Source: a virus
Virus record (IMG/VR): IMGVR_UViG_3300023082_000011
Coordinates: 410-64,409 of that record
Direction: 5' to 3' (one strand)
DNA: 64,000 nt
Positions within the stretch are counted from its first letter, which is position 1, and each line of letters starts with the position of its first letter. Positions 1 to 55,064 of this stretch are shown here, in pieces. Below the pieces are notes generated by a model. It was not told the origin of the DNA, made no database searches, and saw only the letters and a list, made by a program, of their open reading frames with translations. Position numbers and translations under genes: made by a program.

Positions 1-229
1 TATAAATTTTTTAAAAGTAGGCCTGAAAAGTAAACCACCCATACAAGAGCAAATGTCAAAGAAAAACCTATAAATCCTATAATAATGCTGTCACCCGGAC
101 GCCTTAGATGAACATCTGTATTGAATCCGAACATGCCCATGTAAAATTCACCCAAACCATAACAACCATACAAAGACACACAAAATAACAGCATGGTGCC
201 TAAAACTATCAATAATCTTTTTAACATGA
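1..229 (-). CDS. partial membrane protein (start ATG ~227-229, runs off window start; two predicted TM helices)
   Basis: Manual translation MLKRLLIVLGTMLLFCVSLYGCYGLGEFYMGMFGFNTDVHLRRPGDSIIIGFIGFSLTFALVWVVYFSGLLLKNL with no stop before position 1; not in the ORF track because it is truncated. Confidence 0.3.
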
Positions 230-12626: not shown

Positions 12627-13511
12627 TTAAAAATTACCATATTCTACCTGAAATACTTTTAAACCCAATGACCGGGCTCGCCTTACAACTTGACACTGGT
12701 CGTCGTAAAGTGCCTCTATATAGTAGCTTTTAACTATACTTCTCCACATTTCTTCCTTCACCACCCAATCAGGCCTTTGGTCACCGTTTTTCCGCATCAT
12801 CAAGTGGTCATAAGGAATGTCGTGATATTCCAGCCAAGAGTTGGTTCTTTCAAAAGCTTCAAAGTCACGCCCCGTACATATAATTAATGTGTTGTTCGTA
12901 CCTATGGCATTTTTTACGGAAGTGACAATATCGTCTTGGTCAACTTTATCCCAATCGTATGGTCCCCGTTTTCCGGCCATGTCGGCCAAGGTCCCGTCAA
13001 GGTCGTAAATGGTACAAGGCTGTTTGTGGGATTTATTCTCTAGGGTAACCGGTACATAGTTCCCACGCCGTTGTAAATTTTTGTACTTATCATATTGCTT
13101 CCTGATGACTTCCTCGCCTACCTTACGGTTTCTGAGACTGTCACGTAAGAGGGTTTCCTCCAAAGAAATGTCAAAGTAAACGTATTCTATGGGAACGTTC
13201 CAGAATTCAAACCTGTCAAGATATTTGTTTTCTAAATGCGTCGCGTCCACTATTACGTCCTTACCTTCCTGCAAGGCTTCATGTATCAGGGTATCTTCAT
13301 ACTTGGTCACAACCTTTTCCAATTTGGAAAGGTCAGGGCGTTGATAGTACTCCGATATTGATTGTTCCGTGTAACTGAAGAGTGTCTCACATAACTTATC
13401 GCGATTTATCACTACGGTATTCAACGGATTTTTTAACCATTCGTTGTGTGCGAACGTCGATTTGCCAGAATTACTACAGCCGACCGTGACAATTATCTTA
13501 CTATCCTTCAT
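12627..13511 (-). CDS. pnk: polynucleotide 5'-kinase/3'-phosphatase (T4 Pnk-like)
   Basis: N-terminal P-loop VGCSNSGKST (kinase) and C-terminal HAD phosphatase motif IYDLDGTLAD (DxDGT); 294 aa. Confidence 0.8.
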   Translation of the reverse strand: MKDSKIIVTVGCSNSGKSTFAHNEWLKNPLNTVVINRDKLCETLFSYTEQSISEYYQRPDLSKLEKVVTKYEDTLIHEALQEGKDVIVDATHLENKYLDRFEFWNVPIEYVYFDISLEETLLRDSLRNRKVGEEVIRKQYDKYKNLQRRGNYVPVTLENKSHKQPCTIYDLDGTLADMAGKRGPYDWDKVDQDDIVTSVKNAIGTNNTLIICTGRDFEAFERTNSWLEYHDIPYDHLMMRKNGDQRPDWVVKEEMWRSIVKSYYIEALYDDQCQVVRRARSLGLKVFQVEYGNF

Positions 13512-14823
13512 CTTCTATGTTTGAAATTTCTTTTTCTTGTTCATCGGATTCCATCAACAGGAATTTTTTTGACTTTAATTTATAGGCTTCGTATTCATAT
13601 AAAGATTCCTTGCGAATAATTATCCCTTCTTCCGGTACTTTGTTTACGCACATATAACAATCTTTCTCGTTAAACCTTGATTCTAAACACTTAACAAAAT
13701 CTTCGTTAAAATATCTCCCCAATACTTTATCATTCACATCGTGACGAATGTTTTCAAAAAGGTCTATGGCCACCCCATAAAACAATAAAGTGTCCTTGAA
13801 TGGTAGCCCAACTTTTTCATAATACTCGTCTATCTGTTTATCCGATAGATAAATTACTTCACCATCCAAGTTAACCACCGAGATTTTGTATACGTAAAAC
13901 TTATGTTCACCTGGTTTGCAACCATAATCGTATTTTCCTTGAATAGGATTTCCAGAAGGAGTGTAACCTAAAATCTCTCCATATAGGGTCCAGTTTTTGG
14001 GGATAAGCGGCCCAACCTCGGCGGCAACCACACCCCAGATATCCTCTCCATAAAATCCTTCACCTTGTGTGGGGTTAAGGTAGCCGTTTTTAATTACCTT
14101 ACGGCTAGAGTAGATGATATCATATTTTTTCTTGTTTACTTTTACACCAAAAAATTTAGCTAATTTCTCTTTCCAAGTGAGGGGTTCATTCACCAAAACA
14201 TTTCCTATGACCGCACTGGTCCCATGCTTTTTGTAGTGGATACCTATAACATCATTTTCATTTATTTTATGTGCGTTTTTTCTAAAGTTGTCGGTATCCC
14301 CATGTAGGTAGAACTGATTATCCACCAGTCTGTTTATCTTAACTGATTTTTGTACTTTTGAATTTTGCGATTGAGGGATTTTTACTATGTATTTTTCACA
14401 CAAACTATTCCCGTTGATATCAGTAAATTCATCCCCAATTTTCAGGGAATTTATGGAGGTCGGCTCTAGGAAGGGTAAAAGACTTGTGAGGGGCATGAGC
14501 ATACCGTCGGAAATCACCCCACGTAATTTGAGGGCCTTTACTCGTCGCTGGCGGAAAGAGATGAATCCGCGTTTATCCTTGTCATAATTCTCCTCGGCCT
14601 TATCATAGAGATTGTTTTTACTACAATATTCCTCATTAAGTTGTGTACCCGAAACGAAATAAAGCATAGTTTCGCCTTCCTTAACGTCCTTTGATACCAC
14701 AACGTTATTTCCATTAACAACGACCCGTTTGATGTTATCGGCACCTTCTATATCAAATACCTGTCCGATTCGTACTACACTACAAGCATAGTTTTTGCTG
14801 TTTTCTTTTACTTCTAGTTTCAT
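13501..14823 (-). CDS. ATP-dependent RNA ligase (Rnl2/Rnl5-like nucleotidyltransferase with an N-terminal extra domain)
   Basis: Motif I KxHG (IHYKKHGTSAVIG) about 200 aa from the N-terminus, YGEILG (motif IV-like), KFYVYK (motif V-like); immediately upstream of pnk as in T4. Confidence 0.6.
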   Translation of the reverse strand: MKLEVKENSKNYACSVVRIGQVFDIEGADNIKRVVVNGNNVVVSKDVKEGETMLYFVSGTQLNEEYCSKNNLYDKAEENYDKDKRGFISFRQRRVKALKLRGVISDGMLMPLTSLLPFLEPTSINSLKIGDEFTDINGNSLCEKYIVKIPQSQNSKVQKSVKINRLVDNQFYLHGDTDNFRKNAHKINENDVIGIHYKKHGTSAVIGNVLVNEPLTWKEKLAKFFGVKVNKKKYDIIYSSRKVIKNGYLNPTQGEGFYGEDIWGVVAAEVGPLIPKNWTLYGEILGYTPSGNPIQGKYDYGCKPGEHKFYVYKISVVNLDGEVIYLSDKQIDEYYEKVGLPFKDTLLFYGVAIDLFENIRHDVNDKVLGRYFNEDFVKCLESRFNEKDCYMCVNKVPEEGIIIRKESLYEYEAYKLKSKKFLLMESDEQEKEISNIEDEG

Positions 14824-14830
14824 GTTTTTA

Positions 14831-15679
14831 TTAAAATAACTTTAAAATTTGTTCCCTGTCTTTACCGAAAAATGGTGTGTCTTCCACTACTTCCCACTTG
14901 TGTCTTGTCGTGAACTGATTGGCGTTTTCTTCATTGATTTGTGTTTCGCTATCCAATATCCCATTCACATATCTTCTTTTCATTATGAACGATCCACGTT
15001 TCTTTGAAGCATCCAGGTTATTCCAGTTATGTCCTTTCTGGAAACACATTTCCTGCATATCGCTTCCGTTCTTTTTATGTAGTTCCGAGTGTGAATAAAG
15101 GCTTTGCGCCAACATGGCGACCGAATTTTTCTCTGCGTCGCGTTGTCTCCAAAGGAAGTAATTCAGTACTTCGTCTTTTTCGGGTATGGTAAAGGTGCGG
15201 GAATCAAATACGGCTAATTTGAAACCCTCGATCTCATAATCTGTCAAAGCCTTTATGGAGTTTATCTCATGAGGACCTTGTGGTTGTGAAGTTTCGACAA
15301 CGGATGTTTTTCGCAGCATGCGAAGTTGGTTAAACTTTGCCGCCGCCATTGAAGCCGAAATGGAAGTAATCTTCTGGATGTTACCGTCAAACCAAGCACT
15401 TGTCTCCAACTTATCGAAGTCAGTCAATAACAAAGAAATTTCGTCCGACTGTGTGTAACCGAATTTACATCCCTGAATATTTTCACACAGATAAGCCGTA
15501 GTAAGCTGCATGTCCTCAATGAGACCTTCGTCAAAAGGTTTGTCCAATCCTTTAACGTAAGAATGGAATGCTTTTCCATCTAACCTAATAATAGTGTGAG
15601 TCCTACGTGGTAAATAATGTCTTGCACGAAATTCGTAATTTTCTTTAATGCGCTTTCCAAGTCCTGAGTTATCTGACAT
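14831..15679 (-). CDS. Thg1-like protein (tRNA-His guanylyltransferase family, 3'-5' nucleotide polymerase)
   Basis: HTIIRLDGKAFHSY ... DKPFDEGLIEDM ... GYTQSDEISLL matches the Thg1 family signature (vvRiDGrnFhkF / KPnD / YgQSDEiS). Confidence 0.8.
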   Translation of the reverse strand: MSDNSGLGKRIKENYEFRARHYLPRRTHTIIRLDGKAFHSYVKGLDKPFDEGLIEDMQLTTAYLCENIQGCKFGYTQSDEISLLLTDFDKLETSAWFDGNIQKITSISASMAAAKFNQLRMLRKTSVVETSQPQGPHEINSIKALTDYEIEGFKLAVFDSRTFTIPEKDEVLNYFLWRQRDAEKNSVAMLAQSLYSHSELHKKNGSDMQEMCFQKGHNWNNLDASKKRGSFIMKRRYVNGILDSETQINEENANQFTTRHKWEVVEDTPFFGKDREQILKLF

Positions 15680-16346: not shown

Positions 16347-17318
16347 TCAAATGAATTTAAAATCCAAAGCGCTCATTTCAGGATTTAATCTTAAAAACTT
16401 TTCTAAAGGCATTATTATAGGATGCTTTCCACGACTAACAGAAGCTAATAACGTTGATTTTACTAATCCTAACTGCCTTGATGCTTCACTTACAGAGGGG
16501 TAGACAATTAGAGTATTTTTATCAATAACTTGTTTTTTCTTGGTTGTGGGGAGAGGAATCTCGATATTGAGAGTATCACCCTCTTTATAATCCTTAAGAT
16601 ACTTAAAGGGACTTCTGTTTACATCTGGATTTGAAAGCCATACGACTATAGTTCTATATTTGTAATCTTTACATGTTTTAGCAGCTAATTTTACTGTCTT
16701 GAAAACTTCTTTTGTTAATATATTTATCACTTCCCACCCCAGTCTTCTATCTTTATGAATATTAACATTTGTAAAAAGTCCTGAAAGATAATCTTCATAA
16801 AATTTTTTATAAATATAGGGAGTATCGTTAGTAACTCTTCCGGCCAACTTAGCTTCAAAAACAGTCCCATACCCTTCATAGCTACGTGCATCAGATATGC
16901 ACCCAAACTCTTTTTTGGTTAATACATTAATTACTGGGACAGCAACGGGGTTCTTGGATCCTTTTTGATTTTCACCATATCTCCTCCTAGCCTCCTGTGA
17001 AAAAGTCCTTCTATTTGCTCCACACTCAACTAAAGCTAAATTTAAGCCCTTTTCTCTATCTAAAACATCATAGAAATCTTGCCAATAACGTTCCCTACAA
17101 TTTAGGTCTGCTTTAACGCATTCTTCTATAATCTCAACTGTATGATTTTCAAAACCATACTTAATTAATGAGTTGTATAATTTAAACTGATACTCACAAT
17201 TTAAATTTTTATACTCTGTGTGCCTTCTGTGGATGTTAGTTGAAGACCCCACATAGATTTTTTCGGCGGGGCTTGTGATTTTGTACACACCTGACACTAC
17301 TTTTATCTTTTTTCTCAT
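16347..17318 (-). CDS. GIY-YIG homing endonuclease
   Basis: GVYKITSPAEKIYVGSSTNIHRRHTEYKN; freestanding, immediately downstream of the DNA polymerase gene. Confidence 0.75.
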   Translation of the reverse strand: MRKKIKVVSGVYKITSPAEKIYVGSSTNIHRRHTEYKNLNCEYQFKLYNSLIKYGFENHTVEIIEECVKADLNCRERYWQDFYDVLDREKGLNLALVECGANRRTFSQEARRRYGENQKGSKNPVAVPVINVLTKKEFGCISDARSYEGYGTVFEAKLAGRVTNDTPYIYKKFYEDYLSGLFTNVNIHKDRRLGWEVINILTKEVFKTVKLAAKTCKDYKYRTIVVWLSNPDVNRSPFKYLKDYKEGDTLNIEIPLPTTKKKQVIDKNTLIVYPSVSEASRQLGLVKSTLLASVSRGKHPIIMPLEKFLRLNPEMSALDFKFI

Positions 17319-17462: not shown

Positions 17463-19616
17463 TTATGAAATTCTAATTTTACTTGGTTTGATTTCTTCAG
17501 GAACACCATATTTGTCAGTTAACCATTCCCTTACATATTGTTCATATTGTTTTTCGGTAGGTATTTTATTCACGCAAAATTTAAGATAATTTTCTTCTTC
17601 TTTCTCACGTTTTGTTTTATCCCTTAAATTTTTAGCTTCTTCTAACATACGTTCCTCAGTTCCATCAATCTTATGTATTAACTTATAACATTCATCAACA
17701 TAGTATTCATAATCAATTTGATATTTTTCTATTGGTAATTCAAAATATTTATTGAAAATTGTTACTTTTTTACCAGCTTCATATTCGGTAGATGTAAGTT
17801 TTGGTTCTCCAGTTATTTTATCTGGTTTATAGGTACATTTACGGAACGATTTACCATTGGTTGATACAAAGTATCTATTGTTCTTTTGTTGTTTCGTTAT
17901 ATCGCTTATTTCATCATTATTGTCACAAACAAAAGTTTCGGCCCACCATTCACCAGTAGTATTTCCTGTTTTACAAAATTCATAGATATCGTTACACTCA
18001 GACAAAGTTTTTTCTACGGGGATGTTTTCAAGAAAATACTTATTCACCGCCGTTGAAACTATTCCTTGAGAAAATGCCTTATGCCACTCCCCATCTTTCC
18101 TTAATTCTTCGTTATCCTTAAAAGTTCCTTTGTATTTAGTGGAAACCTTTGGTTTATATATATAGGAATCGTTTTCAAAAAATATTTCATTTGAAGAAAC
18201 GGCAATGTAGTTATTTACGTCACGTATGACCATCTTTGAATACTCAACATACTCAAGCTGCAATTTACTGATTTCTTGCCAATAATTACAGACCTTGAAA
18301 TACATGTCGATATGTTTTCTGTCAAACTTTACGGTAACACCGTCCGTATTTATTTGTAACATCTGCAAACCTGGAATTTTCATGAACATGAGTTCAGAAA
18401 GCATCAATAAGGCAAGTTGCCCCGCCAAAGTTGTTTTGAGGGTGTATAAAGGATCATAAAGAAAGCTGAATTCACTGTTGCTCTTACCGTATACGCTATT
18501 GGCTGAAAGTTTATAACCATCGGCCATGATTTTATCCCTCATCTTTCCGTCCACTTTTTCTTTGGCATATAGACGGGGTTTTACAATACCGTCTTCATAT
18601 ACCTTTGAAAAAACTTCACCCAAATGTGCAGGATAAAGTTTTTCGGCAATGGCCAAACTCGGATAAAGACTTGCCACGTCGGCGTCAATTATTATTTGGT
18701 CTTCCGCAGCATAAACCCCTGCCTTAATACAACCATGTATTCCTCCCGTTCCAATATCAAACTGAAAATCGTTTGAAGTAAAACTGTAGGCAAAAGAATC
18801 TTTCAATTCCTTGACTTCGATACTTTGTATGTAACTAAACATTTCCTTGAAAGGTTCCGTGCGGAATTTAATATATGAGGGAACGCATTCCGCAAATTTA
18901 AAAAGACTTCTGTGGGTCCTTAAACGTTTAACAATTGCCTCGGATAAACCTGTAGCCTCGCAATAAAGTTTTAAAACAAGCTGCTCACCTATCTTTGAAT
19001 CGGGGTAATTGATACATTTCATTCCATATTTCTTCAACAACCCCCTACGAAGTTCCATCTTACCTTCGGTCTTGTAATAGAACTCTTCCGTGGCGTTTAC
19101 GTCGTTGATGTTGTAATCCAGAATTTCCTGTACCTGTTCAACGGTTTTGATTTTGGTTGTATGGTGGTAAGGCATATCCAAAACGTTGGGATAATTCATA
19201 TTTATCTCAAGTCTCTTTAAGCTAGTGATACGTGCCTTGTTGTTAAAGTGCCAAATAGCAAAAAGATCCATTTGTGGAATCATTACTTCCTCTTCCTTTA
19301 CTGTGGAAAATTCGGCCTTGATAACAGACTGTGCTTTCTTATATACGGAAGCTGTTATTTTATCCCCTGTCCAATATTGCATTTCGGGGATACCTTTTAA
19401 CAAATGGTGTATTACCGGATAGTCGAATGCTAAATTATTGTATCCCACCATTCCTTTACATTTACGTAAATGGTCTACGAATGAGGCGTAATCGTTCCTT
19501 TCCTTCCAAATAACAAATTGTACTATTTCTTTTGTATCCCTGTTCTTGGCTGTATATGTAAACAAATTAGCCAATGTTTCAATATCATAAATCCAAATTC
19601 CTTTATCTTCCATCAT
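17463..19616 (-). CDS. family B DNA polymerase
   Basis: Exo I YDIETL; Pol motif A DADVASLYPS; motif B KLSANSVYGK; motif C QINTDGV (YxDTD-like); 717 aa. Confidence 0.8.
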   Translation of the reverse strand: MMEDKGIWIYDIETLANLFTYTAKNRDTKEIVQFVIWKERNDYASFVDHLRKCKGMVGYNNLAFDYPVIHHLLKGIPEMQYWTGDKITASVYKKAQSVIKAEFSTVKEEEVMIPQMDLFAIWHFNNKARITSLKRLEINMNYPNVLDMPYHHTTKIKTVEQVQEILDYNINDVNATEEFYYKTEGKMELRRGLLKKYGMKCINYPDSKIGEQLVLKLYCEATGLSEAIVKRLRTHRSLFKFAECVPSYIKFRTEPFKEMFSYIQSIEVKELKDSFAYSFTSNDFQFDIGTGGIHGCIKAGVYAAEDQIIIDADVASLYPSLAIAEKLYPAHLGEVFSKVYEDGIVKPRLYAKEKVDGKMRDKIMADGYKLSANSVYGKSNSEFSFLYDPLYTLKTTLAGQLALLMLSELMFMKIPGLQMLQINTDGVTVKFDRKHIDMYFKVCNYWQEISKLQLEYVEYSKMVIRDVNNYIAVSSNEIFFENDSYIYKPKVSTKYKGTFKDNEELRKDGEWHKAFSQGIVSTAVNKYFLENIPVEKTLSECNDIYEFCKTGNTTGEWWAETFVCDNNDEISDITKQQKNNRYFVSTNGKSFRKCTYKPDKITGEPKLTSTEYEAGKKVTIFNKYFELPIEKYQIDYEYYVDECYKLIHKIDGTEERMLEEAKNLRDKTKREKEEENYLKFCVNKIPTEKQYEQYVREWLTDKYGVPEEIKPSKIRIS

Positions 19617-21405: not shown

Positions 21406-21903
21406 TTACCATACCACTTTCTGGAATTTCTTATCGTATTTTATGAATTTGTGTAGGAACCCATAGTCGTGACAGACCAGGTTATTCCCGATCCATCCAA
21501 AGTTATCCTGCTTCACGTCGCTAAAGAATGCGGGTATGGTAGCAGGTCTTTTCTTCTCGGGCTTTTCAAAAGTCCGTTGCATAACTATGATTTTCTTGTT
21601 GGGACTCGTCCACAGTATGGGCGCGAACCATTTCTTTACCCACGCAAGGTTTCCCGTCAATTCCTGGATTTCTTCCCACAAAAGGAACTCCGAAGTATTG
21701 TTTGTGGAGCCTGAGAATTCCACCTTGACCACATATTTTGGATCAAGATTATACTCATAGACGCAGCGGAAGCTGCCATAGCCTATTTCCTTTCCCACTA
21801 TGGAGTGAATGAGGTCCATATTGACTTCCAGCCTGTTGTGTATGTCAAGTAGTTCCTTGTTGTCCTTTAGGGTGTTTTTAAGTTCCAGCATTTTCTGTCT
21901 CAA
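21406..21903 (-). CDS. hypothetical protein with a protein-kinase-like glycine loop
   Basis: IGYGSFRCVYEY..KYVVKVE resembles GxGxFGxV..VAVK; DYGF resembles DFG; 165 aa, too short for a canonical kinase. Confidence 0.3.
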   Translation of the reverse strand: MRQKMLELKNTLKDNKELLDIHNRLEVNMDLIHSIVGKEIGYGSFRCVYEYNLDPKYVVKVEFSGSTNNTSEFLLWEEIQELTGNLAWVKKWFAPILWTSPNKKIIVMQRTFEKPEKKRPATIPAFFSDVKQDNFGWIGNNLVCHDYGFLHKFIKYDKKFQKVVW

Positions 21904-22345
21904 AAGTTCTGCCTATGTTAAACTTTACGTTATCCCCAAAGAAATAACTCACGTCTTCCAGAAGGTTATACATATAAGCCTCTATTACGTCTATGTCATA
22001 ATTTGGTGTGTAATGTACGTTGAAGGTAACGTTCAATCCGTCCCTGTTACCGTACACTTTTACTCCCTCAAACTTACGTTGAATCTCTTTTTCAAAATCT
22101 TCCACATGTTGTCCTATTTTTTTGTTCAGCATGGAGGAAGCTTTGTTTAAAAGCGGCTGTAATTTTTTGACCATATTGGACAAGGTAATTTCTTCCACAT
22201 AGTCTATTGGATCGCTACCTTCACAGAAAAGATATATGTTATCAAGTGATACGGCTGTGATGTAGCCGTTATTTACCAACTCCCAAAACGTCTGTTCCTC
22301 GTTTGCGTTAAATTCACTTACAAATTCTAATGCTTTATCTTCCAT
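21878..22345 (-). CDS. hypothetical protein (155 aa)
   Basis: ORF track. Confidence 0.4.
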   Translation of the reverse strand: MEDKALEFVSEFNANEEQTFWELVNNGYITAVSLDNIYLFCEGSDPIDYVEEITLSNMVKKLQPLLNKASSMLNKKIGQHVEDFEKEIQRKFEGVKVYGNRDGLNVTFNVHYTPNYDIDVIEAYMYNLLEDVSYFFGDNVKFNIGRTFETENAGT

Positions 22346-22346
22346 T

Positions 22347-23351
22347 TTATTGAATATTATTAAATTCTGTTGATAGGGGGCTTAATATTTCCAATATTGC
22401 CTCAATAGTCCACCCGTTTCCGAAGGCTTTGTATATTTGGCTGTTGGAAACTCCCGAATTGATTATGTTGGTAATTTCTTCCTCCGTAAAGGTCTGCAAC
22501 CTTCCACACTCCCTTACGGAGTATCTCCTTGTGGCGAAAGGCGTGTGAATGATGCCCATATCGGAATGATTACCTCCTGAGTGGGACAGTCCCTTCCAAC
22601 GTGTTTCAAAAAAGGTAAGGTAAAGCCGAGTATAGACAAGGCGGGATGCCTTACGGGAGGGGCACACTCAGGAGGTAATCATTCCGAATGGTGAACTCCT
22701 CCCTCCGACACGTACACATTTTGATTTTTCCCTGACCGCAATCCCTATGGGACAATCGGGTAAATCTTCCAGTATGTCTTTTAAAAGAATACCCCTGTCC
22801 TCAGGCATTTGTATATCAGGTATGTTACTCCAGTAATTTCTTTTACGACTTTGGGCTGAAACCGAGTCACTGTTTATCTTAATAGGGCTGACGCCTAATT
22901 CTTTGGAAATGACATCTTCCCATTTTTTATGCATGTGAACATTTTCCAACAAGAAGTATTTTGGCTTGGCTTCCCTTAAAACTCTCACGTACTCCCAGAA
23001 AAGGTAAGATTGACCTTCAAATTCAAATCCTTTCTCTTTTAGGTCCAGATATTGGTCCAACGATAAAACTTCTATGCTATCTTTAGTGGACATTCCATTA
23101 AGTTTACCCGCCATTGAGAACGACTGACAAGGAGATCCTCCCAAAAGTAAATCCGCACCTAATAAATTCTGAAAATTAGTATCCCTTATGTCACCCATAT
23201 AGATAATATTTTCACAATTGGCCTTAGATAATTGCATGGCCGGTTTATCAATCTCAAAAGATACATATTTTTCTATGGGTATACCAAGTCTCCTTAAAGC
23301 CAGATATCCACACGACATACCATCAAAAGCCGAAATTACCTTAATTCCCAT
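22347..23351 (-). CDS. second DNA (cytosine-5)-methyltransferase, split by an in-frame TGA (22668-22670) embedded in a 23-bp perfect inverted repeat
   Basis: N-part 22668..23351 has FDGMSCG, GGSPCQSFS and ENV; C-part 22347..22667 (GTG start) has RRYSVRECGRLQTF and AFGNGW; the two ORFs are in the same frame. Confidence 0.6.
22561..22687. repeat. 23-bp perfect inverted repeat (tcggaatgattacctcctgagtg / cactcaggaggtaatcattccga) with an 81-nt spacer, inside the C5-MTase gene
   Basis: Arms at 22561..22583 and 22665..22687; the mRNA 5' arm contains the in-frame UGA. Confidence 0.8.
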
Positions 23352-23365
23352 AAATGACCAAAAAT

Positions 23366-23668
23366 TTATTTTTGTCTATATTTTCTTCCATCCAGGTTTC
23401 CAACCCTTCCACACCCACAAAATATTTTTTCAAAATATTGTCCGTTGGACATCCTTATTTCCATGTGGGGCTTATGATAAATTATCCCCTCGTCAACATA
23501 GAGACAATCGGGAAGGTAGTCAATGGTACTAAAGTTCCAGAAATAAAATCCTTCCTTTCTCCTAAAGTACCACTTATTTATGGCTGGCTTATATGAGTAC
23601 TGCCTAGCTTTAGCTTTTTTGTAGACTGTCACACTAACAATTTGCTCCCTGTTTATTTGTGTGGACAT
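23366..23668 (-). CDS. hypothetical protein (100 aa)
   Basis: ORF track. Confidence 0.35.
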   Translation of the reverse strand: MSTQINREQIVSVTVYKKAKARQYSYKPAINKWYFRRKEGFYFWNFSTIDYLPDCLYVDEGIIYHKPHMEIRMSNGQYFEKIFCGCGRVGNLDGRKYRQK

Positions 23669-23976
23669 TAATTTGATACCGTTTTTAGTTCTTGGGAATA
23701 TTTGAGATATTTTTCTATCTTTTCTAATTTATTACCAATTTTTATGGGGCACAATATTTGTTCGGGAAGGATACCTTGAAGCTGTAAATAACCCATTGCT
23801 CCCACCAAATCGTTATACTCATCCAACAACCGCTCCAAATTGTTTAATTTAAAGGGATTTTGTGCAGGATCGTCCTGTACCTCATCCAAACCAAACCTGA
23901 GTGCCTTTGAAGCCCTTTGTGATATCTCTTGGCACTCTTCCATCACTAGGAGCAGTAATAATTCCTGTTTCGTCAT
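23668..23976 (-). CDS. hypothetical protein (102 aa)
   Basis: ORF track. Confidence 0.35.
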   Translation of the reverse strand: MTKQELLLLLVMEECQEISQRASKALRFGLDEVQDDPAQNPFKLNNLERLLDEYNDLVGAMGYLQLQGILPEQILCPIKIGNKLEKIEKYLKYSQELKTVSN

Positions 23977-24242
23977 AACTTAAAATCTTTGGTAAATTGT
24001 ATATGGCGTTCCAAGGAAGTCTTGAAACCATAATCGTCTTCTATGTTGACCAAGTCTCTTTTATGGTACTCGTAAAGATCCTTGAACATGGCGAACTTTC
24101 CGTTTCCGTACATCCTGAGAAACTTTGCGTCCTTTTCCTGTCCCCAGTCTTCCCATTGTGTATCATGTTCAAATCCAAGCAATAAAAGTTCTTCCTTCAT
24201 CTCTAGAAGACGGTTTGTGCTACCTACCGATATTGATCCCAT
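23973..24242 (-). CDS. hypothetical protein (89 aa)
   Basis: ORF track; ATGA overlap. Confidence 0.35.
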   Translation of the reverse strand: MGSISVGSTNRLLEMKEELLLLGFEHDTQWEDWGQEKDAKFLRMYGNGKFAMFKDLYEYHKRDLVNIEDDYGFKTSLERHIQFTKDFKL

Positions 24243-41537: not shown

Positions 41538-42585
41538 CTTTTCTGTTATCTCATAGGCTCTTTATCCTATGATTCTGCACCTTCATTTGTTATACGTGCA
41601 GTTCAGACTATATCATCAGTATTTCTACTGCTGGACGCTCGTGTCAGCATTACTGTCCCAGTAGGACTCGGCTGTTAGTCGTTGAACCTTCAAAAGTGTT
41701 ACCACTTAAGCTTGGCTGCTGATAGTCCCCTTTAGTAGGATTTTCCAGCAATTCATCCAGTTTTACTCGGGCATTGGACAGAATGTACTTATTTTTAAAT
41801 ATCTTACTTGAATTAATATAATGATAGATGACCGTAGTAGTTTCAAAAATCTTTTTAGCTTGATCCACAGATTCAATTTCTGTGATTTCTTTTGTTTCAA
41901 TGTTAAGACAATACAACGTTTTATAGTTTTTTGGTATAGGAACTTTTCTTTGTTCCCACTTACCAGGGGGTTTAGCCCCTTTGTGTCTTATTTGAAACTG
42001 CCTTAATCTTTTTGAGTTCCTTCTCATACTATTTTGAATGTGCTTATCAGATATACCGATAAATTTAGCACATTCTGTATGACTTGGAAAACTCCTTAAA
42101 AAGTTACCTTCTAAGTCATACACATCTACAGATTTTCTTCCAGATAATAATTTCCCTTCTTCGTGAAGTTTCTTGACGGACTTAGAAATTTTTTCTCTCT
42201 GCTCGTCAGAAAATACCCTTAAAAGGCCCCCGATACCTTTATCGTGGGTGTTTGTCAAATCAAACCCTTTATCAAGATAATCTTTGATTATCTGTTGTTC
42301 TGCTTTATAACTCTCTTCCCAACCTTCTACTTCCGATATCATCTCAATTATAGGTGATAATCCCTTTTTTGCCAAACTTAGTATCCAACAATCCTTATGT
42401 GTTTTAGGATTACTACTTTTAGCTTTGGATTTGTGCCCTGATAATCTTACTTTTAAGGAATTTTTTGTTCTTCCTATATAGCGAATTAGATTTGTGGTTG
42501 GATCAGTGAGACTGTAGATCTTGACTTTCATTATATTGATTTGTCGTAAAGATATAAAATCTTATAATACAAACCAAATTTATTT
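41538..42585 (-). mobile_element. group I intron (~1.05 kb) with an internal GIY-YIG HEG, interrupting the RNR gene after the GSG codons
   Basis: Exon 1 ends ..LMLGSG with a T (U) as its last nucleotide (stop TAA two codons later), and exon 2 starts VGFS.., together rebuilding the conserved GGGVGFS motif; an S-element-like UGAUAUAGUCUG lies ~60 nt before an intronic ..AAAAG 3' end; HEG ORF 41650..42531. Confidence 0.5.
41650..42531 (-). CDS. GIY-YIG homing endonuclease (intron-encoded)
   Basis: KIYSLTDPTTNLIRYIGRTKNSLKVRLSGH; C-terminal DNA-binding-like region; sits between the two RNR exons. Confidence 0.75.
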   Translation of the reverse strand: MKVKIYSLTDPTTNLIRYIGRTKNSLKVRLSGHKSKAKSSNPKTHKDCWILSLAKKGLSPIIEMISEVEGWEESYKAEQQIIKDYLDKGFDLTNTHDKGIGGLLRVFSDEQREKISKSVKKLHEEGKLLSGRKSVDVYDLEGNFLRSFPSHTECAKFIGISDKHIQNSMRRNSKRLRQFQIRHKGAKPPGKWEQRKVPIPKNYKTLYCLNIETKEITEIESVDQAKKIFETTTVIYHYINSSKIFKNKYILSNARVKLDELLENPTKGDYQQPSLSGNTFEGSTTNSRVLLGQ

Positions 42586-46439: not shown

Positions 46440-47520
46440 CAAATGCCCGGAGTAAATTAGTTAGTTAATCCAGACAACTGTCGTCCATTATTTTTGAATC
46501 AAATCTGCATATTTCAAGTTCTCCCTACCCATCCTAAGTAACGTGAGGTTGAACTTCTGTGTAGGTTTTTCTTCGCGTTCGTTATATCGGAATGCCATCT
46601 CGTCGCAATACTTCTGTAAGTGTTTCCTGCTTACCTGATAGTACGTTCCTATGATGCTTCTTTTTAGGTGGCTCCAATGGTTTTCAACTGGATTACTTGT
46701 ATATCCGTCGTCAGTCACGTAATTCTTGGCTCCGTGGTTCACGACTTTTTGGTTGTAGTACCTGTCCAATCCCGCATAACCCGTCCACTCGTCGGTGACT
46801 ATGGTAGACCCCTGCGGTACGAGTTCCCATACCAAAGGCTGTAATGTCATTGATTTGGTGTCGGGAACCACCTTAGTGTACACCTTTCCGTCCTGCATCA
46901 TACCGAATACCGGAGTCTTGTCTTTGTAACTGCGGCCTTGCGATTGCTTTACTTTCTTGTCCGCGTGACGGTTCTTGTTTTTTCCTCCCACAAATGTCTC
47001 GTCCATGGTTATCACCATATCCTGTTGTATGTCGGGAACATCCTGCTTATAGGAATGTCTTATCCGGCTAAGCATGAACCAGGCCGTCTTTTGGGTCAAA
47101 CCCAGATCCTCGGCAAGCTGATAGGAACTTATCCCGCGTTTATGGGACGAAAACAGGTAGACCGCAATGAACCAATGGCGAAGGCCGATGGGCGAGTTCT
47201 CGAATATCGTCCCAACCCGAACCGTGTACCTCTTTCTGCAAGTTCCGCATTTGTAGAGGCCGTTAAACTCTCCCTTTACGTTGAGTTTGTATGCTTTCTG
47301 TCCTTCGCAGTGCGGACATTTGGGTTTGCCTTCCCACAGCACATCTTCCAGGTATTCCCTGCACGATTTCTCGTCGGGCAGCACCCTCAACATTTCCGCA
47401 AACGACTTGAATTCCAATTTACACATAACCAGAACTTTAAAGTGTATAAATTTACTGAATCGGGGTGAAACGGGCAAATATGTTGTTCAAATTCCTATGA
47501 AAATTTTGTTAATTTTAGAA
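46440..47520 (-). mobile_element. IS1595-family insertion sequence (ends approximate)
   Basis: Contains the single transposase gene 46488..47477; terminal inverted repeats not confidently resolved by eye. Confidence 0.4.
46488..47477 (-). CDS. IS1595-family DDE transposase
   Basis: N-terminal zinc ribbon CPHCEG..CGTCRKRY, HTH, MVITMDETFVGG, TIVTDEWTGY, VVNHG, NPVENHWSHLKR and AFRYNER follow the IS1595/ISXO2 transposase motif order. Confidence 0.8.
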   Translation of the reverse strand: MPVSPRFSKFIHFKVLVMCKLEFKSFAEMLRVLPDEKSCREYLEDVLWEGKPKCPHCEGQKAYKLNVKGEFNGLYKCGTCRKRYTVRVGTIFENSPIGLRHWFIAVYLFSSHKRGISSYQLAEDLGLTQKTAWFMLSRIRHSYKQDVPDIQQDMVITMDETFVGGKNKNRHADKKVKQSQGRSYKDKTPVFGMMQDGKVYTKVVPDTKSMTLQPLVWELVPQGSTIVTDEWTGYAGLDRYYNQKVVNHGAKNYVTDDGYTSNPVENHWSHLKRSIIGTYYQVSRKHLQKYCDEMAFRYNEREEKPTQKFNLTLLRMGRENLKYADLIQK

Positions 47521-49100: not shown

Positions 49101-50080
49101 TATTTATTCAACCCTTCAATTACCGCTTTGACATCTTCCTCTTTCTGTTGTATGGTAGCCTTCGTATCCTGATCCTGGTTCTCAAAATCTTCCCTTACCA
49201 AAACTCCACGTAAGATGGTGAACAGATTTTCCTTGTCCTTCTTTGTAAGTTTTTTCTTGGAAGTTAATTTCAAGATTTCGTCCTTGTTCTCTTCGCTGAT
49301 TCCTCGGTCTTCGTAGATTTTTTGTAGGAGTGACTTTTCTGGGTGAACTTGTTCTACTGTACTACTGTCAGTTTTATTAACTATTACTACATCAAAATTC
49401 TCCCAACGCATTTTGTAAAATAGTTGTACTAAAGCAATTATATCCTTTACAACGTACTCATTTATGAGTTTAATTCCGTTAGTCCAATATTCTTCGCTTA
49501 CCTTACTTCCTTCAATTTCACCATCCTTTGGAGATACTACGTTATAAAGGTAGCAAACTTCATCAAAGGACGGGTTATTGTAAAAAGTACCTCGTGTGTG
49601 CTGCATTAAATCAATAACCTTTTTCATGTCCCACTCCTTTTTCCCGGAGGGGTTGAAGTCATCTTTTAATTTGGCGGCTATATCAAAATGTCTCGCTGAA
49701 CAGCTTACTATGGTGGGCAGATCAAAATTGATTCCATTAAAAGTTACAAGGTATTCGAATTGTCTGGATATATCGCAGAACTGTTTGATTATCTCTGCTT
49801 CTTCGCCATAAATGGATTTTACACGTAACTCCCCTTTGACAACATATCCGACACCTATGCATACAATCTTGTTGTAACACATACGTAAGGCAGCCTCTTT
49901 TTGGTAAAGATCTAAGATTTCTGCGTTAGGGGGAAACTCTCCCGTTGTTTTGTTCCTGTTCTTTTTCGCAAACAGTTGAAACTCTTTTGAATCTAAGTCT
50001 AAATCTTTACTTCTTCTAACACACTCTATGTCAACGAACAGACATTCCGTTATCTTTATTGCTTTTAATTTATTGTTCAT
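49100..50080 (-). CDS. DEDD-family 3'-5' exonuclease (RNase H-like fold)
   Basis: Exo I FVDIECV (DxE), Exo II FNGINFDLP, Exo III-like YNNPSFDEVCYLYN. Confidence 0.5.
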   Translation of the reverse strand: MNNKLKAIKITECLFVDIECVRRSKDLDLDSKEFQLFAKKNRNKTTGEFPPNAEILDLYQKEAALRMCYNKIVCIGVGYVVKGELRVKSIYGEEAEIIKQFCDISRQFEYLVTFNGINFDLPTIVSCSARHFDIAAKLKDDFNPSGKKEWDMKKVIDLMQHTRGTFYNNPSFDEVCYLYNVVSPKDGEIEGSKVSEEYWTNGIKLINEYVVKDIIALVQLFYKMRWENFDVVIVNKTDSSTVEQVHPEKSLLQKIYEDRGISEENKDEILKLTSKKKLTKKDKENLFTILRGVLVREDFENQDQDTKATIQQKEEDVKAVIEGLNK

Positions 50081-51014
50081 TATAGTCTTGTTTTATGTAA
50101 TAGTCGTGATAATAACATTCAACAGGATTTATTGTTAAACATTCAGTGTGCCCTTTGAAATGAATTTTAGGTTCATATTTGTAATTACTAAATTCTTTTA
50201 AGAATCTTTGCTCTAACTTATAACATTCCACCATATTGTTAGGTTCACTATATAATAACTCCACGTTGTAGGACTTTTTAAAACTATTTGTTCTGTAATT
50301 TATCCTAGATTTGGAGGTGACCCCTATTTTATAAAATGATTCTGAATTGTTAGACAATCTTAGGATATAGGTATAACCCTCTATCTTACTTAGGTATTCT
50401 TTATGAGTACAGATTGTCTCTTCCGTGTATGTTATTGTACCTGGCATACATTTTGGACACGATTGTTTATTATTAATGTGTCTATCGGGAGATTGTAAGT
50501 AAGTCATGTCGTGAATTTTACATCTAAAAATACTTTTAGTAGTGCTCGTGCTATAAGTAAATTTTGAGTAGTCAATATTGTCCCAATCTTTTCTACAATC
50601 TTTGTTTTTTCTTAGCCAAAAATCAGTTTTGTCTGAGGCTGACCCTATGACAAACTTTTTTAATACTTTTAGTTTGCTAAGTTTCATCCTCATTATCCCA
50701 TGTATAGTATCAAGAAAACATAAACCGTTTTCATACTTTAATACCGAATTTATTTGCTCAGATATCTCAGGATTTCTTTCCGATATTATGTTGTAAATAA
50801 ACATCTTTTCATTTTCTGAGGATCCTACTCTTCTTTTACTAGTAATTAAACTCAAAATATCTTTATAGGTCATTAAGAATTCTCCATACCTATCTTCACA
50901 TAATATAAGTCGATTTATTCTTTTCTTAACTATAAACTTTTCTTGTCTATAATCTTCGCAAACTTCTGACAACTTCTCCCTAAGATTTTCTATTGTATAC
51001 TTAGTATTACCCAT
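50070..51014 (-). CDS. T5orf172 (GIY-YIG-like) domain protein
   Basis: GYTYILRLSNNSESFYKIGVTSKSRINYRTNSF resembles the T5orf172/MUG113 core; CPKC zinc motif upstream. Confidence 0.45.
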   Translation of the reverse strand: MGNTKYTIENLREKLSEVCEDYRQEKFIVKKRINRLILCEDRYGEFLMTYKDILSLITSKRRVGSSENEKMFIYNIISERNPEISEQINSVLKYENGLCFLDTIHGIMRMKLSKLKVLKKFVIGSASDKTDFWLRKNKDCRKDWDNIDYSKFTYSTSTTKSIFRCKIHDMTYLQSPDRHINNKQSCPKCMPGTITYTEETICTHKEYLSKIEGYTYILRLSNNSESFYKIGVTSKSRINYRTNSFKKSYNVELLYSEPNNMVECYKLEQRFLKEFSNYKYEPKIHFKGHTECLTINPVECYYHDYYIKQDYNEQ

Positions 51015-53127: not shown

Positions 53128-53472
53128 TTAATTTATTTTCATTTCCAATGCCTGCTCTTTGGTGGGAACCCAATCCCCGCCTAAATAACCCATGACCCAA
53201 TCGTAGAGATTATCGTAGGGTACTTCGGGACCACTGTTGGATCTGAAATTTATGTTATTTCCCATGCCCCTGAAAGATATGCTCCACACGTCCCCAAACC
53301 TTGTATCATAGCAGTTGTCTATATACTTAATCATGAAGCCATATTCTGGCAGGTTCGGGTATTTTTGTTTTGTTTCTTCACTCCTACCGTCAGATGATAT
53401 ATACCCAAATCTGTGATGTTGTTGGATGAAACTTAGCACTTTATTGTATTGGTCTGGTGACATTCCTTTCAT
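53128..53472 (-). CDS. hypothetical protein (114 aa), downstream of the DGR RT
   Basis: ORF track; overlaps the RT 3' end. Confidence 0.35.
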   Translation of the reverse strand: MKGMSPDQYNKVLSFIQQHHRFGYISSDGRSEETKQKYPNLPEYGFMIKYIDNCYDTRFGDVWSISFRGMGNNINFRSNSGPEVPYDNLYDWVMGYLGGDWVPTKEQALEMKIN

Positions 53473-54394
53473 ATTTATTCCTTAAATTTACCGAATTACA
53501 ATGCGCCAACCAAGAATTGTGGTTCATCTTAATTGGGTTCTTTTTGTACTTTTGTTTTATAGACTTCCTTAGTAATACGTGGGTGTGATAATGTCGAAAT
53601 CCTACCCAGTCTATACCCCTACTTTCTACGGGAAATATTTGGTGGTTTGATTTAACCTCCAGTTTTAGGTTGTCCCCCAAATACTTCTTGATTTCTTGAA
53701 ACCGCGTATGAAGTTCTTCCTTACTGTCTGACAAAATTACAAAATCGTCACAATATCTTTGAAAATACTTTATCCGCAAAACTTCCTTAACCCAGTGGTC
53801 GAAATAGGTGAGGTAGAAGTTAGCCAAAAACTGACTTGTGTAAGATCCCAAAGGCAAGCCTTCTTCATAAGAGTCTATTACGTCATCCAATAACCATAAA
53901 ACCCCCCTATCCTTAAACTTTTTTCGGAGCAGCCCTTTTAATATACTCTTGTCTACGGACTGATAGAATTTTCTTATGTCCAACTTAAGGCAGTATTTCG
54001 TACCTTCTGCGTCTTTCAGGTAATTCCTCAGCTTATAAGATGCTGCATGCACACCCCTTCCTTTTATGCAACTAAAGGTATCCGCCGTGAAAGTCTTTAT
54101 AAACAAAGGCTCCAAAACATTTAGAACTACATGATGTACTATACCATCAGGGTAAAATGGGAGTGAGGATATTGTTCTTTCCTTACCCTCAAAAATGGTG
54201 AAGGTGTGGTAAGGAGAAGTAGTGAATGATCTATACTCCAACATCGCCTTTATTTTCCACAGATTTTCTTCCCTATTTTCCAGATGTCTTTTTACTCCCC
54301 TTTGTTTGGCTTTACCTCTTTTGGCCTTAATCTCCGCTTTTCTTATGTTATCTATGTCAACTATCTTTTCAAAAAGGTTGCCTATACGTTTCAT
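53441..54394 (-). CDS. diversity-generating retroelement (DGR) reverse transcriptase
   Basis: RT motifs: LKLDIRKFYQSVD (motif A), LPLGSYTSQFLANFYL (DGR-specific [IL]GxxxSQ in place of QGxxxSP), RYCDDFVIL (YxDD); 317 aa; adjacent TR/VR pair. Confidence 0.85.
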   Translation of the reverse strand: MKRIGNLFEKIVDIDNIRKAEIKAKRGKAKQRGVKRHLENREENLWKIKAMLEYRSFTTSPYHTFTIFEGKERTISSLPFYPDGIVHHVVLNVLEPLFIKTFTADTFSCIKGRGVHAASYKLRNYLKDAEGTKYCLKLDIRKFYQSVDKSILKGLLRKKFKDRGVLWLLDDVIDSYEEGLPLGSYTSQFLANFYLTYFDHWVKEVLRIKYFQRYCDDFVILSDSKEELHTRFQEIKKYLGDNLKLEVKSNHQIFPVESRGIDWVGFRHYHTHVLLRKSIKQKYKKNPIKMNHNSWLAHCNSVNLRNKYERNVTRPIQ

Positions 54395-54525
54395 ATTTTT
54401 TCAAAGCCTCTGTATTTTGACACATTTTCGGAACTATACTCCTACCAATGTGTCTTTAAGTGCTTTATTTGTTATTTTCTACCGTTTTAAGGTAAAGTTT
54501 TCCTCCTGTAAATGGTGCATCACCG

Positions 54526-54584
54526 CAGATGTGCGTCGAATAGTTACAATTCGAGTTGTAGTCATTGAAGTTGTTGACAACGGG
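54526..54584 (-). repeat. DGR template repeat (TR)
   Basis: 59-bp copy between the target gene stop and the RT; the coding strand carries adenines at all 10 positions where the VR differs; TR translates PVVNNFNDYNSNCNYSTHICGD, rich in AAC codons. Confidence 0.75.
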
Positions 54585-54602
54585 GGAGGGGGACTTGCTT
54601 AT

Positions 54603-55064
54603 TTAGTATGGTATGTATTCTTCAAATTGGTTAAAGGCAATCTTTGTAAGGTGCCTCTGTAATGGTTCACTCTTAGTACAGAGGCGCGCCGAAAAGTCAC
54701 AATCCGAGTAGTAGCCACCGAAGTAGTTGACAACGGGTTTACCTGATCTTAAATCCCAGTATGTAAACCATTTTCTTTCGCTCGAATTGGTAAAGTCTGG
54801 TTCCCAACCTTCATTCAAAGCTTTACATTGTACAACAATTTCTTGTTCTGCTACAATCTTACGGGATAATCCTTGTACACTATACAAAAGACGTAACTGT
54901 TTAACGGCTTCGTCATTCTCTCCCAATTCAAGTATCGCATCCTGCAATCCTCTTATACGGGAAAAGATGTCTTTTTTACTTTCTTTGAATACTATATTCT
55001 CAAATGTTGACTTTTCTTTGTCAATTTCGTAACCGTTGGGAATTTCAATTTTTAGATTTTTCAT
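54603..55064 (-). CDS. DGR target protein (153 aa) with the variable repeat near its C-terminus
   Basis: VR encodes ..KPVVNYFGGYYSDCDFSARLC..; C-type-lectin-like Gly/Tyr/Asp/Cys-rich C-terminal region. Confidence 0.7.
   Translation of the reverse strand: MKNLKIEIPNGYEIDKEKSTFENIVFKESKKDIFSRIRGLQDAILELGENDEAVKQLRLLYSVQGLSRKIVAEQEIVVQCKALNEGWEPDFTNSSERKWFTYWDLRSGKPVVNYFGGYYSDCDFSARLCTKSEPLQRHLTKIAFNQFEEYIPY
54679..54737 (-). repeat. DGR variable repeat (VR)
   Basis: Matches the TR except at 10 of 18 TR adenine positions (coding strand): classic A-specific mutagenesis pattern. Confidence 0.75.

Follow-up and report, generated by a model that had tools for sequence, protein, structure and literature searches.

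The window, by which we mean the whole 64,000-nucleotide stretch of viral DNA analysed here, holds the genes with which a large phage (139-kb contig) replicates and conducts its nucleotide metabolism, and nearly all of these lie on the minus strand. One of these genes encodes a C5-cytosine DNA methyltransferase that is interrupted by an in-frame TGA (Table 1). In the N-terminal ORF (23351..22668), the match to the methyltransferase family begins at profile position 1 (positions 1-87 and beyond), and the translated product, which ends in GGRSSPFGMITS at the stop codon, is identical to the called protein P0001. From the C-terminal half, an ATG-initiated tail of 70 residues is called as P0121 in a JGI assembly. 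The catalytic motifs I, IV (PCQ), VI (ENV), VIII, IX, and X are all found in the interrupted gene; a continuous ORF with an intact target-recognition domain (TRD) is absent from it (22347-23351). A preliminary description of this DNA, made from the sequence by itself, had placed motifs I, IV, and VI in the N-terminal half and motifs IX and X in the C-terminal half, with which the PF00145 matches agree. It had also stated that the halves are separated only by the TGA. This is right as far as the common frame and the lone stop are concerned, but the 34 codons past the TGA are unrelated to the homologs.

The window carries two other methyltransferase genes, an intact C5 methyltransferase and an N6/N4 methyltransferase, which makes the loss of the broken one plausible. 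We considered the intact C5 methyltransferase as a possible donor or duplicate of the interrupted gene and rejected it, given their low identity and unrelated TRDs. As a separate observation, the phage carried at least three modification specificities.

The other genes of the window encode a DNA polymerase, helicases, a primase, an RNR, an exonuclease, an RNA ligase, a PNKP, and a Thg1-like enzyme, and also GIY-YIG homing endonucleases, an IS1595-type transposase, and a reverse transcriptase. The reverse transcriptase ORF (53441-54394; phrog_1423, E value 5e-108) belongs to a probable diversity-generating retroelement (DGR) on the minus strand (53441-55064). It is adjoined by the template-like copy of a 59-nt repeat (54526-54584), whose variable-like copy (54679-54737) lies within the 3' end of a 153-aa ORF (54603-55064). 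All of the mismatches between the two copies (11/11) fall on a T of the first copy on the plus strand, which is an A on the coding strand, the signature of an adenine-specific DGR. The IS1595-family DDE transposase ORF (46488-47426, minus strand; PF12762 with an E value of 6e-42, plus a PF12760 zinc ribbon) is located in the replication module of what is apparently a lytic phage. Three GIY-YIG/NUMOD homing endonuclease ORFs and one ORF with a T5orf172 domain (970-1812, 16347-17318, 41650-42531, and 50070-51014, minus strand) are found among the replication genes, one of the four directly downstream of the DNA polymerase gene (17463-19616). A contiguous RNA-repair-like set on the minus strand (12627-15679) is composed of the PNKP, with its kinase and HAD phosphatase (12627-13511), and the RNA ligase (13501-14823), and is completed by the Thg1-like tRNA-His guanylyltransferase homolog (14831-15679), an unusual companion for a PNKP and an RNA ligase.

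Table 1. Positions in the window of the interrupted methyltransferase gene, its parts, and the two other methyltransferase genes.
Feature	Position	Strand	Remarks
C5-cytosine DNA methyltransferase gene (PF00145)	23351..22347	minus	1,005 nt, interrupted
N-terminal part, 227 aa	22668..23351	minus	PF00145, E 3e-24; motifs I, IV PCQ, VI ENV, VIII QxRxR, start of TRD
C-terminal part, 106 codons	22667..22347	minus	PF00145 positions 269-319
Open, homolog-like C-terminal stretch (DMGIIHTPFATRRYSVRECGRLQT...; motifs IX, X GNGW)	22347..22560	minus	
In-frame TGA stop	22668..22670	minus	Inside the derived arm; sole stop between the halves, both in one frame
Derived arm (5' in mRNA), TCGGA-ATGATTACCTCCT-GAGTG	22665..22687	minus	Reverse-complement copy of the other arm
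81-nt spacer, TRD coding sequence inverted	22584..22664	minus	Plus strand encodes (E)WDSPFQRVSKK and GKVKPSIDKAGCLTGGA, as in homologs
Homopolymer run AAAAAAGG in the inverted segment	22608..22615		One base short for joining ...QRVSKK to GKVKP...
Original arm (3' in mRNA), CACTC-AGGAGGTAATCAT-TCCGA	22561..22583	minus	Encodes H S G G N H S D; was copied to give the derived arm
Flank CCAT(A)	22556..22560		Complementary to ATGG at 22688-22691, one bulged A; stem extends with the bulge
Intact C5 methyltransferase, 309 aa	4638-5567	minus	39% identical to the broken one, different TRD
N6/N4 methyltransferase, 189 aa	20409-20978	minus	

The TGA lies within the 5' arm of a perfect 23-bp inverted repeat with an 81-nt spacer, a statement of the preliminary description that holds literally. 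When the arms are extended (22561-22593 / 22655-22687), they comprise 33 nt at 88%. The 23-mer is found at just these two sites in the window, even at three mismatches (0 expected, 100 shuffles), and the 23-nt arm gives zero exact matches in the viral, metagenome, and genome collections; a 32-nt piece of the spacer likewise gives zero exact matches in viral contigs. Folding the RNA of the coding strand (22710..22540) yields -65.2 kcal/mol, versus -47.7 +/- 4.4 kcal/mol for shuffled sequences (z = -3.96), with the long stem as predicted, in agreement with the earlier proposal of a long mRNA stem-loop that carries the stop codon in its stem. The UCC codons that had been pointed out at a take-off position and within the 3' arm are also both present, one directly before the UGA and the other at 22565. 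In four intact homolog genes, exact inverted repeats reach at most 9-10 bp, and none of them is at this site. An Rfam scan of 22000-23600 at a permissive E value resulted in chance-level matches alone, with no intron or riboswitch family.

The 3' arm reads CAC TCA GGA GGT AAT CAT TCC GA, and the encoded HSGGNHSD is invariant or nearly so in 16 aligned homologs. The 5' arm reads TC GGA ATG ATT ACC TCC TGA GTG, which is the exact reverse complement of the 3' arm. At the position of the 5' arm, the homologs have GGA AGC AAA CAA GAG TGG (G S K Q E W). The ends of the derived arm, TCGGA and GAGTG, coincide with the ancestral codons F-G and E-W, and between them a foreign middle part of 13 nt stands in place of about 9 nt, corresponding to the S-K-Q codons of the homologs. 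The TGA itself corresponds, as reverse complement, to the TCA that encodes Ser in HSGGNHSD. It came within CCTCCTGA, the reverse complement of TCAGGAGG, which codes for the conserved SGG, and is thus, as had been supposed, not a random nonsense mutation.

In the homology search, intact methyltransferases made of a single chain of about 300-330 aa were found by the thousands, and 16 of them were taken into the alignment; the best homolog is 57% identical, leaving aside the window's own 227-aa product. Compared with the 16 aligned homologs, the gene shows no insertion at the site and just one additional codon. The suggestion that the roughly 35 codons between the arms are an insertion is therefore not supported by the comparison with homologs, the interior being the gene's own TRD in inverted orientation. 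Where the homologs have a highly conserved stretch (consensus SKQEWDSPFQRISKKGKVKPGIDKAACLTGGAH), the gene has 34 unrelated residues between SPFG and SGGNHSD (MITS, the stop, and VCPSRKASRLVYTRLYLTFFETRWKGLSH), and in the alignment the limits of the unrelated stretch are the repeat arms. When the spacer alone is reverse-complemented, frame 0 reads KKGKVKPSIDKAGCLTGGAHSGGNHSDM and frame +1 reads EWDSPFQRVSKK. The in silico flip of the spacer brings back EWDSPFQRVSKK and GKVKPSIDKAGCLTGGAHSGGNHSD, and the two frames together make up the homolog sequence.

Searched with a profile of the 16 homologs, the gene scores 401.9 bits as it stands, 437.8 bits with the spacer flipped, and 469.4 bits with the spacer flipped and both frame lesions repaired. 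The DNA identity between the flipped blocks and the codons of four homologs is 59-72%, versus 20-38%, the chance level, for the sequence as it stands. Since the flip restores the homolog protein, the profile score, and the codon identity, the inter-arm segment is the gene's own TRD sequence, inverted in place. Both the inverted orientation of the spacer and the copying relationship of the arms are shown directly. An inversion in place was absent from the options listed in the preliminary description, yet it is what the data show. The TGA is present in both orientations of the spacer because it sits in the arm.

It is very probable that the gene is a recently inactivated C5-methyltransferase pseudogene whose main lesion is a single replication template switch of the quasi-palindrome type (Ripley / four-point model). 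A fresh pseudogene had been one of the options named beforehand, and this option is upheld. The putative ancestor would have read CCA TTC GGA, followed by 9 nt for S-K-Q, then GAG TGG GAC, a further 82 nt, and finally GCA CAC TCA GGA GGT AAT CAT TCC GAT ATG. Two short complementarities, TCGGA/TCCGA and GAGTG/CACTC, would have been naturally present in it. A nascent strand with TCGGA at its end would have quit its template and re-annealed at the TCCGA of the opposite strand, from where 104 nt would have been copied as the reverse complement, comprising the HSGGNHS codons and then the whole TRD segment as far as GAGTG. The CACTC microhomology would then have allowed the return to the original template. 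Such an event would turn the 5-bp repeats into a perfect 23-bp repeat (arm homogenisation), invert the 81-nt spacer, add a net 4 nt, and introduce an in-frame TGA. The complementarity between CCAT and ATGG lies outside the perfect repeat and hence predates the event, so a weak quasi-palindrome, CCAT-TCGGA ... TCCGA-T-ATGG, was already there.

For the reconstruction, the ancestor was modelled as A-TCGGA-(9 nt)-GAGTG-S-CACTC-AGGAGGTAATCAT-TCCGA-B, to which one switch-and-return was applied. The resulting sequence, ancestor[..1] + revcomp(ancestor[3..2]) + ancestor[4..] with the point order 1<3<4<2, is exactly the observed 1,005-nt gene, so that a single event reproduces it letter by letter. In this reconstruction, 104 nt are copied in place of 100, a net gain of 4; it does not account for the -1 in the homopolymer run. 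Microhomologies of 5 nt are found at both junctions, in codons conserved among the homologs (PFG, EW, HS, and SD). The scar thus has the testable features of a mutation by template switch, namely, an origin as reverse complement, a single event, and pre-existing microhomology. The ancestral DNA used here, in particular the replaced 9 nt, is a putative one that is derived from homologs at most 57% identical, and a megablast search of 21800-24000 against 50,697 phage records gave no match that could serve as a relative at the DNA level. The switch would have occurred in vivo, during phage replication.

At the homopolymer run, the homologs read TCT AAA AAA GGT AAG or AGT AAA AAA GGA AAG. The frame break between ...TCA AAA AA and GGT AAG... 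cannot stem from the switch points and requires a separate loss of one base. Judging from the codons of the homologs, the A/G run at 22608-22615 has thus suffered a lesion of its own, a 1-nt loss (-1) that is independent of the first lesion. The common frame of the two halves is a coincidence, as the +4 and -1 changes add to +3. The gene bears at least two lesions, in an order that we infer. In the flipped orientation (22604-22615, plus strand), the loss of one base from TCA AAA AAA GGT leaves A_AAA_AAG, a dnaX-type -1 slippery heptamer in the right register, which most likely arose automatically through the deletion in the Lys-Lys run and is no signal. A double programmed frameshift on the flipped sequence, with +1 near UCC-UGA and then -1 at A_AAA_AAG, would formally restore the protein. 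We rejected this possibility as contrived: the orientation it needs is not the one present, and the heptamer follows automatically from the loss of one A.

A perfect inverted repeat inside a gene that flanks a segment in noncoding orientation could also indicate a site-specific invertase, which would flip the 81-nt segment between the 23-bp repeats and thereby turn the methyltransferase on and off or alter its specificity, the assembly having caught the OFF state. Phase variation of methyltransferases is well known. Chanin et al. (10.1101/2023.03.11.532203) have documented invertons within genes by which proteins are recoded or premature stops added, and the gene resembles them in having a repeat-flanked segment wholly within the coding sequence, with a premature stop in one orientation. 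Unlike in those cases, the TGA and the +4 frame change are found here in the invariant arm, where inversion leaves them untouched, so that neither orientation gives an intact, functional gene, and an additional -1 lesion lies within the segment. Of the 30 largest ORFs of the window, none was found to encode an invertase (serine or tyrosine recombinase), and the repeat is not conserved at this site in the homologs. The contig, moreover, assembles through the site in two assemblies. A search with the 106-aa C-terminal fragment as the query brought up no variant in the opposite orientation, although this was a weak test: it retrieved just the ATG-initiated tail of 70 aa, whose start is downstream of the inversion, so that it does not inform on the orientation. 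Taken together, we consider an inverton unlikely. There is also a slim chance that the perfect 23-bp repeat made by the template switch now operates as a live switch, or that the 227-aa SAM-binding fragment or the mRNA hairpin has been put to a new use; if true, the gene would be a snapshot of how a replication error gives rise to an intragenic inverton or a regulatory hairpin. That the structure was made in the library or by the assembler, with the real phage gene being intact, is very unlikely in our judgment. A template switch of a polymerase in vitro (e.g., an MDA chimera) or a mis-assembly at the repeat would be needed for this. In vitro, strand-displacing polymerases do yield inverted chimeras by the same chemistry, and all assemblies appear to come from one sample. 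Against this, the Logan assembly of run SRR7963841, which was built independently, shows no difference over 6,684 nt, repeat included, so that two independent assemblies agree over 6.7 kb. The presence of the same structure in the Logan contig argues for the repeat as a real feature, a point on which the preliminary description had made its own reading depend. The k-mers used in assembly are usually longer than a 23-bp arm, and the 127-nt structure fits into one short read, so the reads should fix the orientation. Any single chimera is rare and should not prevail in the consensus sequence of a 139-kb contig, and an artefact leaves the extra -1 lesion inside the segment unexplained.

Two other options of the preliminary description, a recoding element and a small insertion, are not supported by the data. 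Programmed recoding would mean read-through or reassignment of the UGA, or a bypass like that of T4 gene 60, from the UCC before the UGA to a later UCC. The stop codon does lie in a strong stem directly after a UCC, a potential take-off codon, as in T4 gene 60, and matching UCC codons follow the UCC-UGA at gaps of 15, 27, 87, 108, and 153 nt, one of them in the 3' arm. The gap of T4 gene 60 is 50 nt, whereas the relevant gaps here are 87 and 108 nt, and a 23-bp perfect duplex takes the place of the compact hairpin. TGA is an ordinary stop codon in this phage, which terminates 31 of the 100 tiled ORFs, many of them as ATGA overlaps, and gene packing is normal under table 11. The read-through product would contain 34 residues that bear no relation to a segment which the homologs conserve strongly. 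Scores of 350-396 bits are obtained for the five UCC-to-UCC bypass products, versus 402 bits for read-through and 469 bits for the repaired gene, and in every one of them the conserved TRD core is removed or scrambled; the supposed gap is damaged, inverted coding DNA and not a coding gap. We thus regard recoding as highly improbable. A mobile element bounded by terminal inverted repeats (MITE) is harder still to reconcile with the gene and has next to no probability, although 23-bp terminal inverted repeats about 127 nt apart and a locally higher GC content would suit one. The gene equals its homologs plus one codon, the interior is its own TRD inverted, and one arm is made up of its own conserved HSGGNHSD codons. 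Neither the window nor the viral, metagenome, and genome collections contain another copy of the repeat, and a target-site duplication is absent. A further known arrangement is that of the M.AquI-type split C5-methyltransferases, in which the alpha and beta subunits are divided in the variable region. Here, too, the break is located between motifs VIII and IX, in the TRD, and both halves are open frames; unlike in M.AquI, however, about 33 conserved TRD residues are scrambled and not partitioned, and the homologs are single-chain proteins. In terms of class, the structure is not an inverton, a bypass element, a MITE, or a stop reassignment, each of which failed at a defining feature that was tested.

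Quasi-palindrome mutations were reportedly described in phage T4 by Ripley in 1982. The mechanism of such template switches was first proposed by Ripley, for bacteriophages (PMC8604942), and was cast as a four-point model by Loytynoja and Goldman in 2017 (PMC5453318). In the latter source, a switch between strands is described to turn a near-perfect inverted repeat into a perfect one, and possibly to invert the spacer. Abraham and Hazkani-Covo (2021) reported arm homogenisation and spacer inversion in coding genes of yeast, for example, in REG2, where 5-bp arms became 16-bp arms (PMC8604942). The phage gene shares several properties with these mutations. Its derived stretch exactly matches nearby sequence in reverse complement, a short imperfect repeat has become a long perfect one, and a cluster of changes is accounted for by one event. 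Its spacer is inverted, which needs an inter-strand switch, microhomology is present at both switch points, and a hairpin has been made de novo in RNA and DNA (compare PMC8794818). It differs from most described template switches in its much larger size, with 104 nt copied and a spacer of 81 nt, compared with spacers of 2-5 nt in the yeast genes (PMC8604942). In addition, it is destructive and not tolerated, it is accompanied by the extra -1 lesion, and its ancestor is deduced from distant homologs and not from a sister lineage.

With neither recoding, bypass, nor a new mobile element at this gene, a false lead has been removed. What the gene offers instead is a natural template switch in a phage that is unusual for its large size and clean form, a new instance of a known mutational process, in which a perfect 23-bp hairpin, the inversion of 81 nt, and a stop codon all came from one event. 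The example also serves as a warning that a stop codon inside a perfect intragenic hairpin can be the scar of a template switch, for which a comparison of the reverse complement of the spacer with homologs provides a quick diagnostic. For the phage, the loss of one of at least three methyltransferases may reflect relaxed selection for that anti-restriction specificity.
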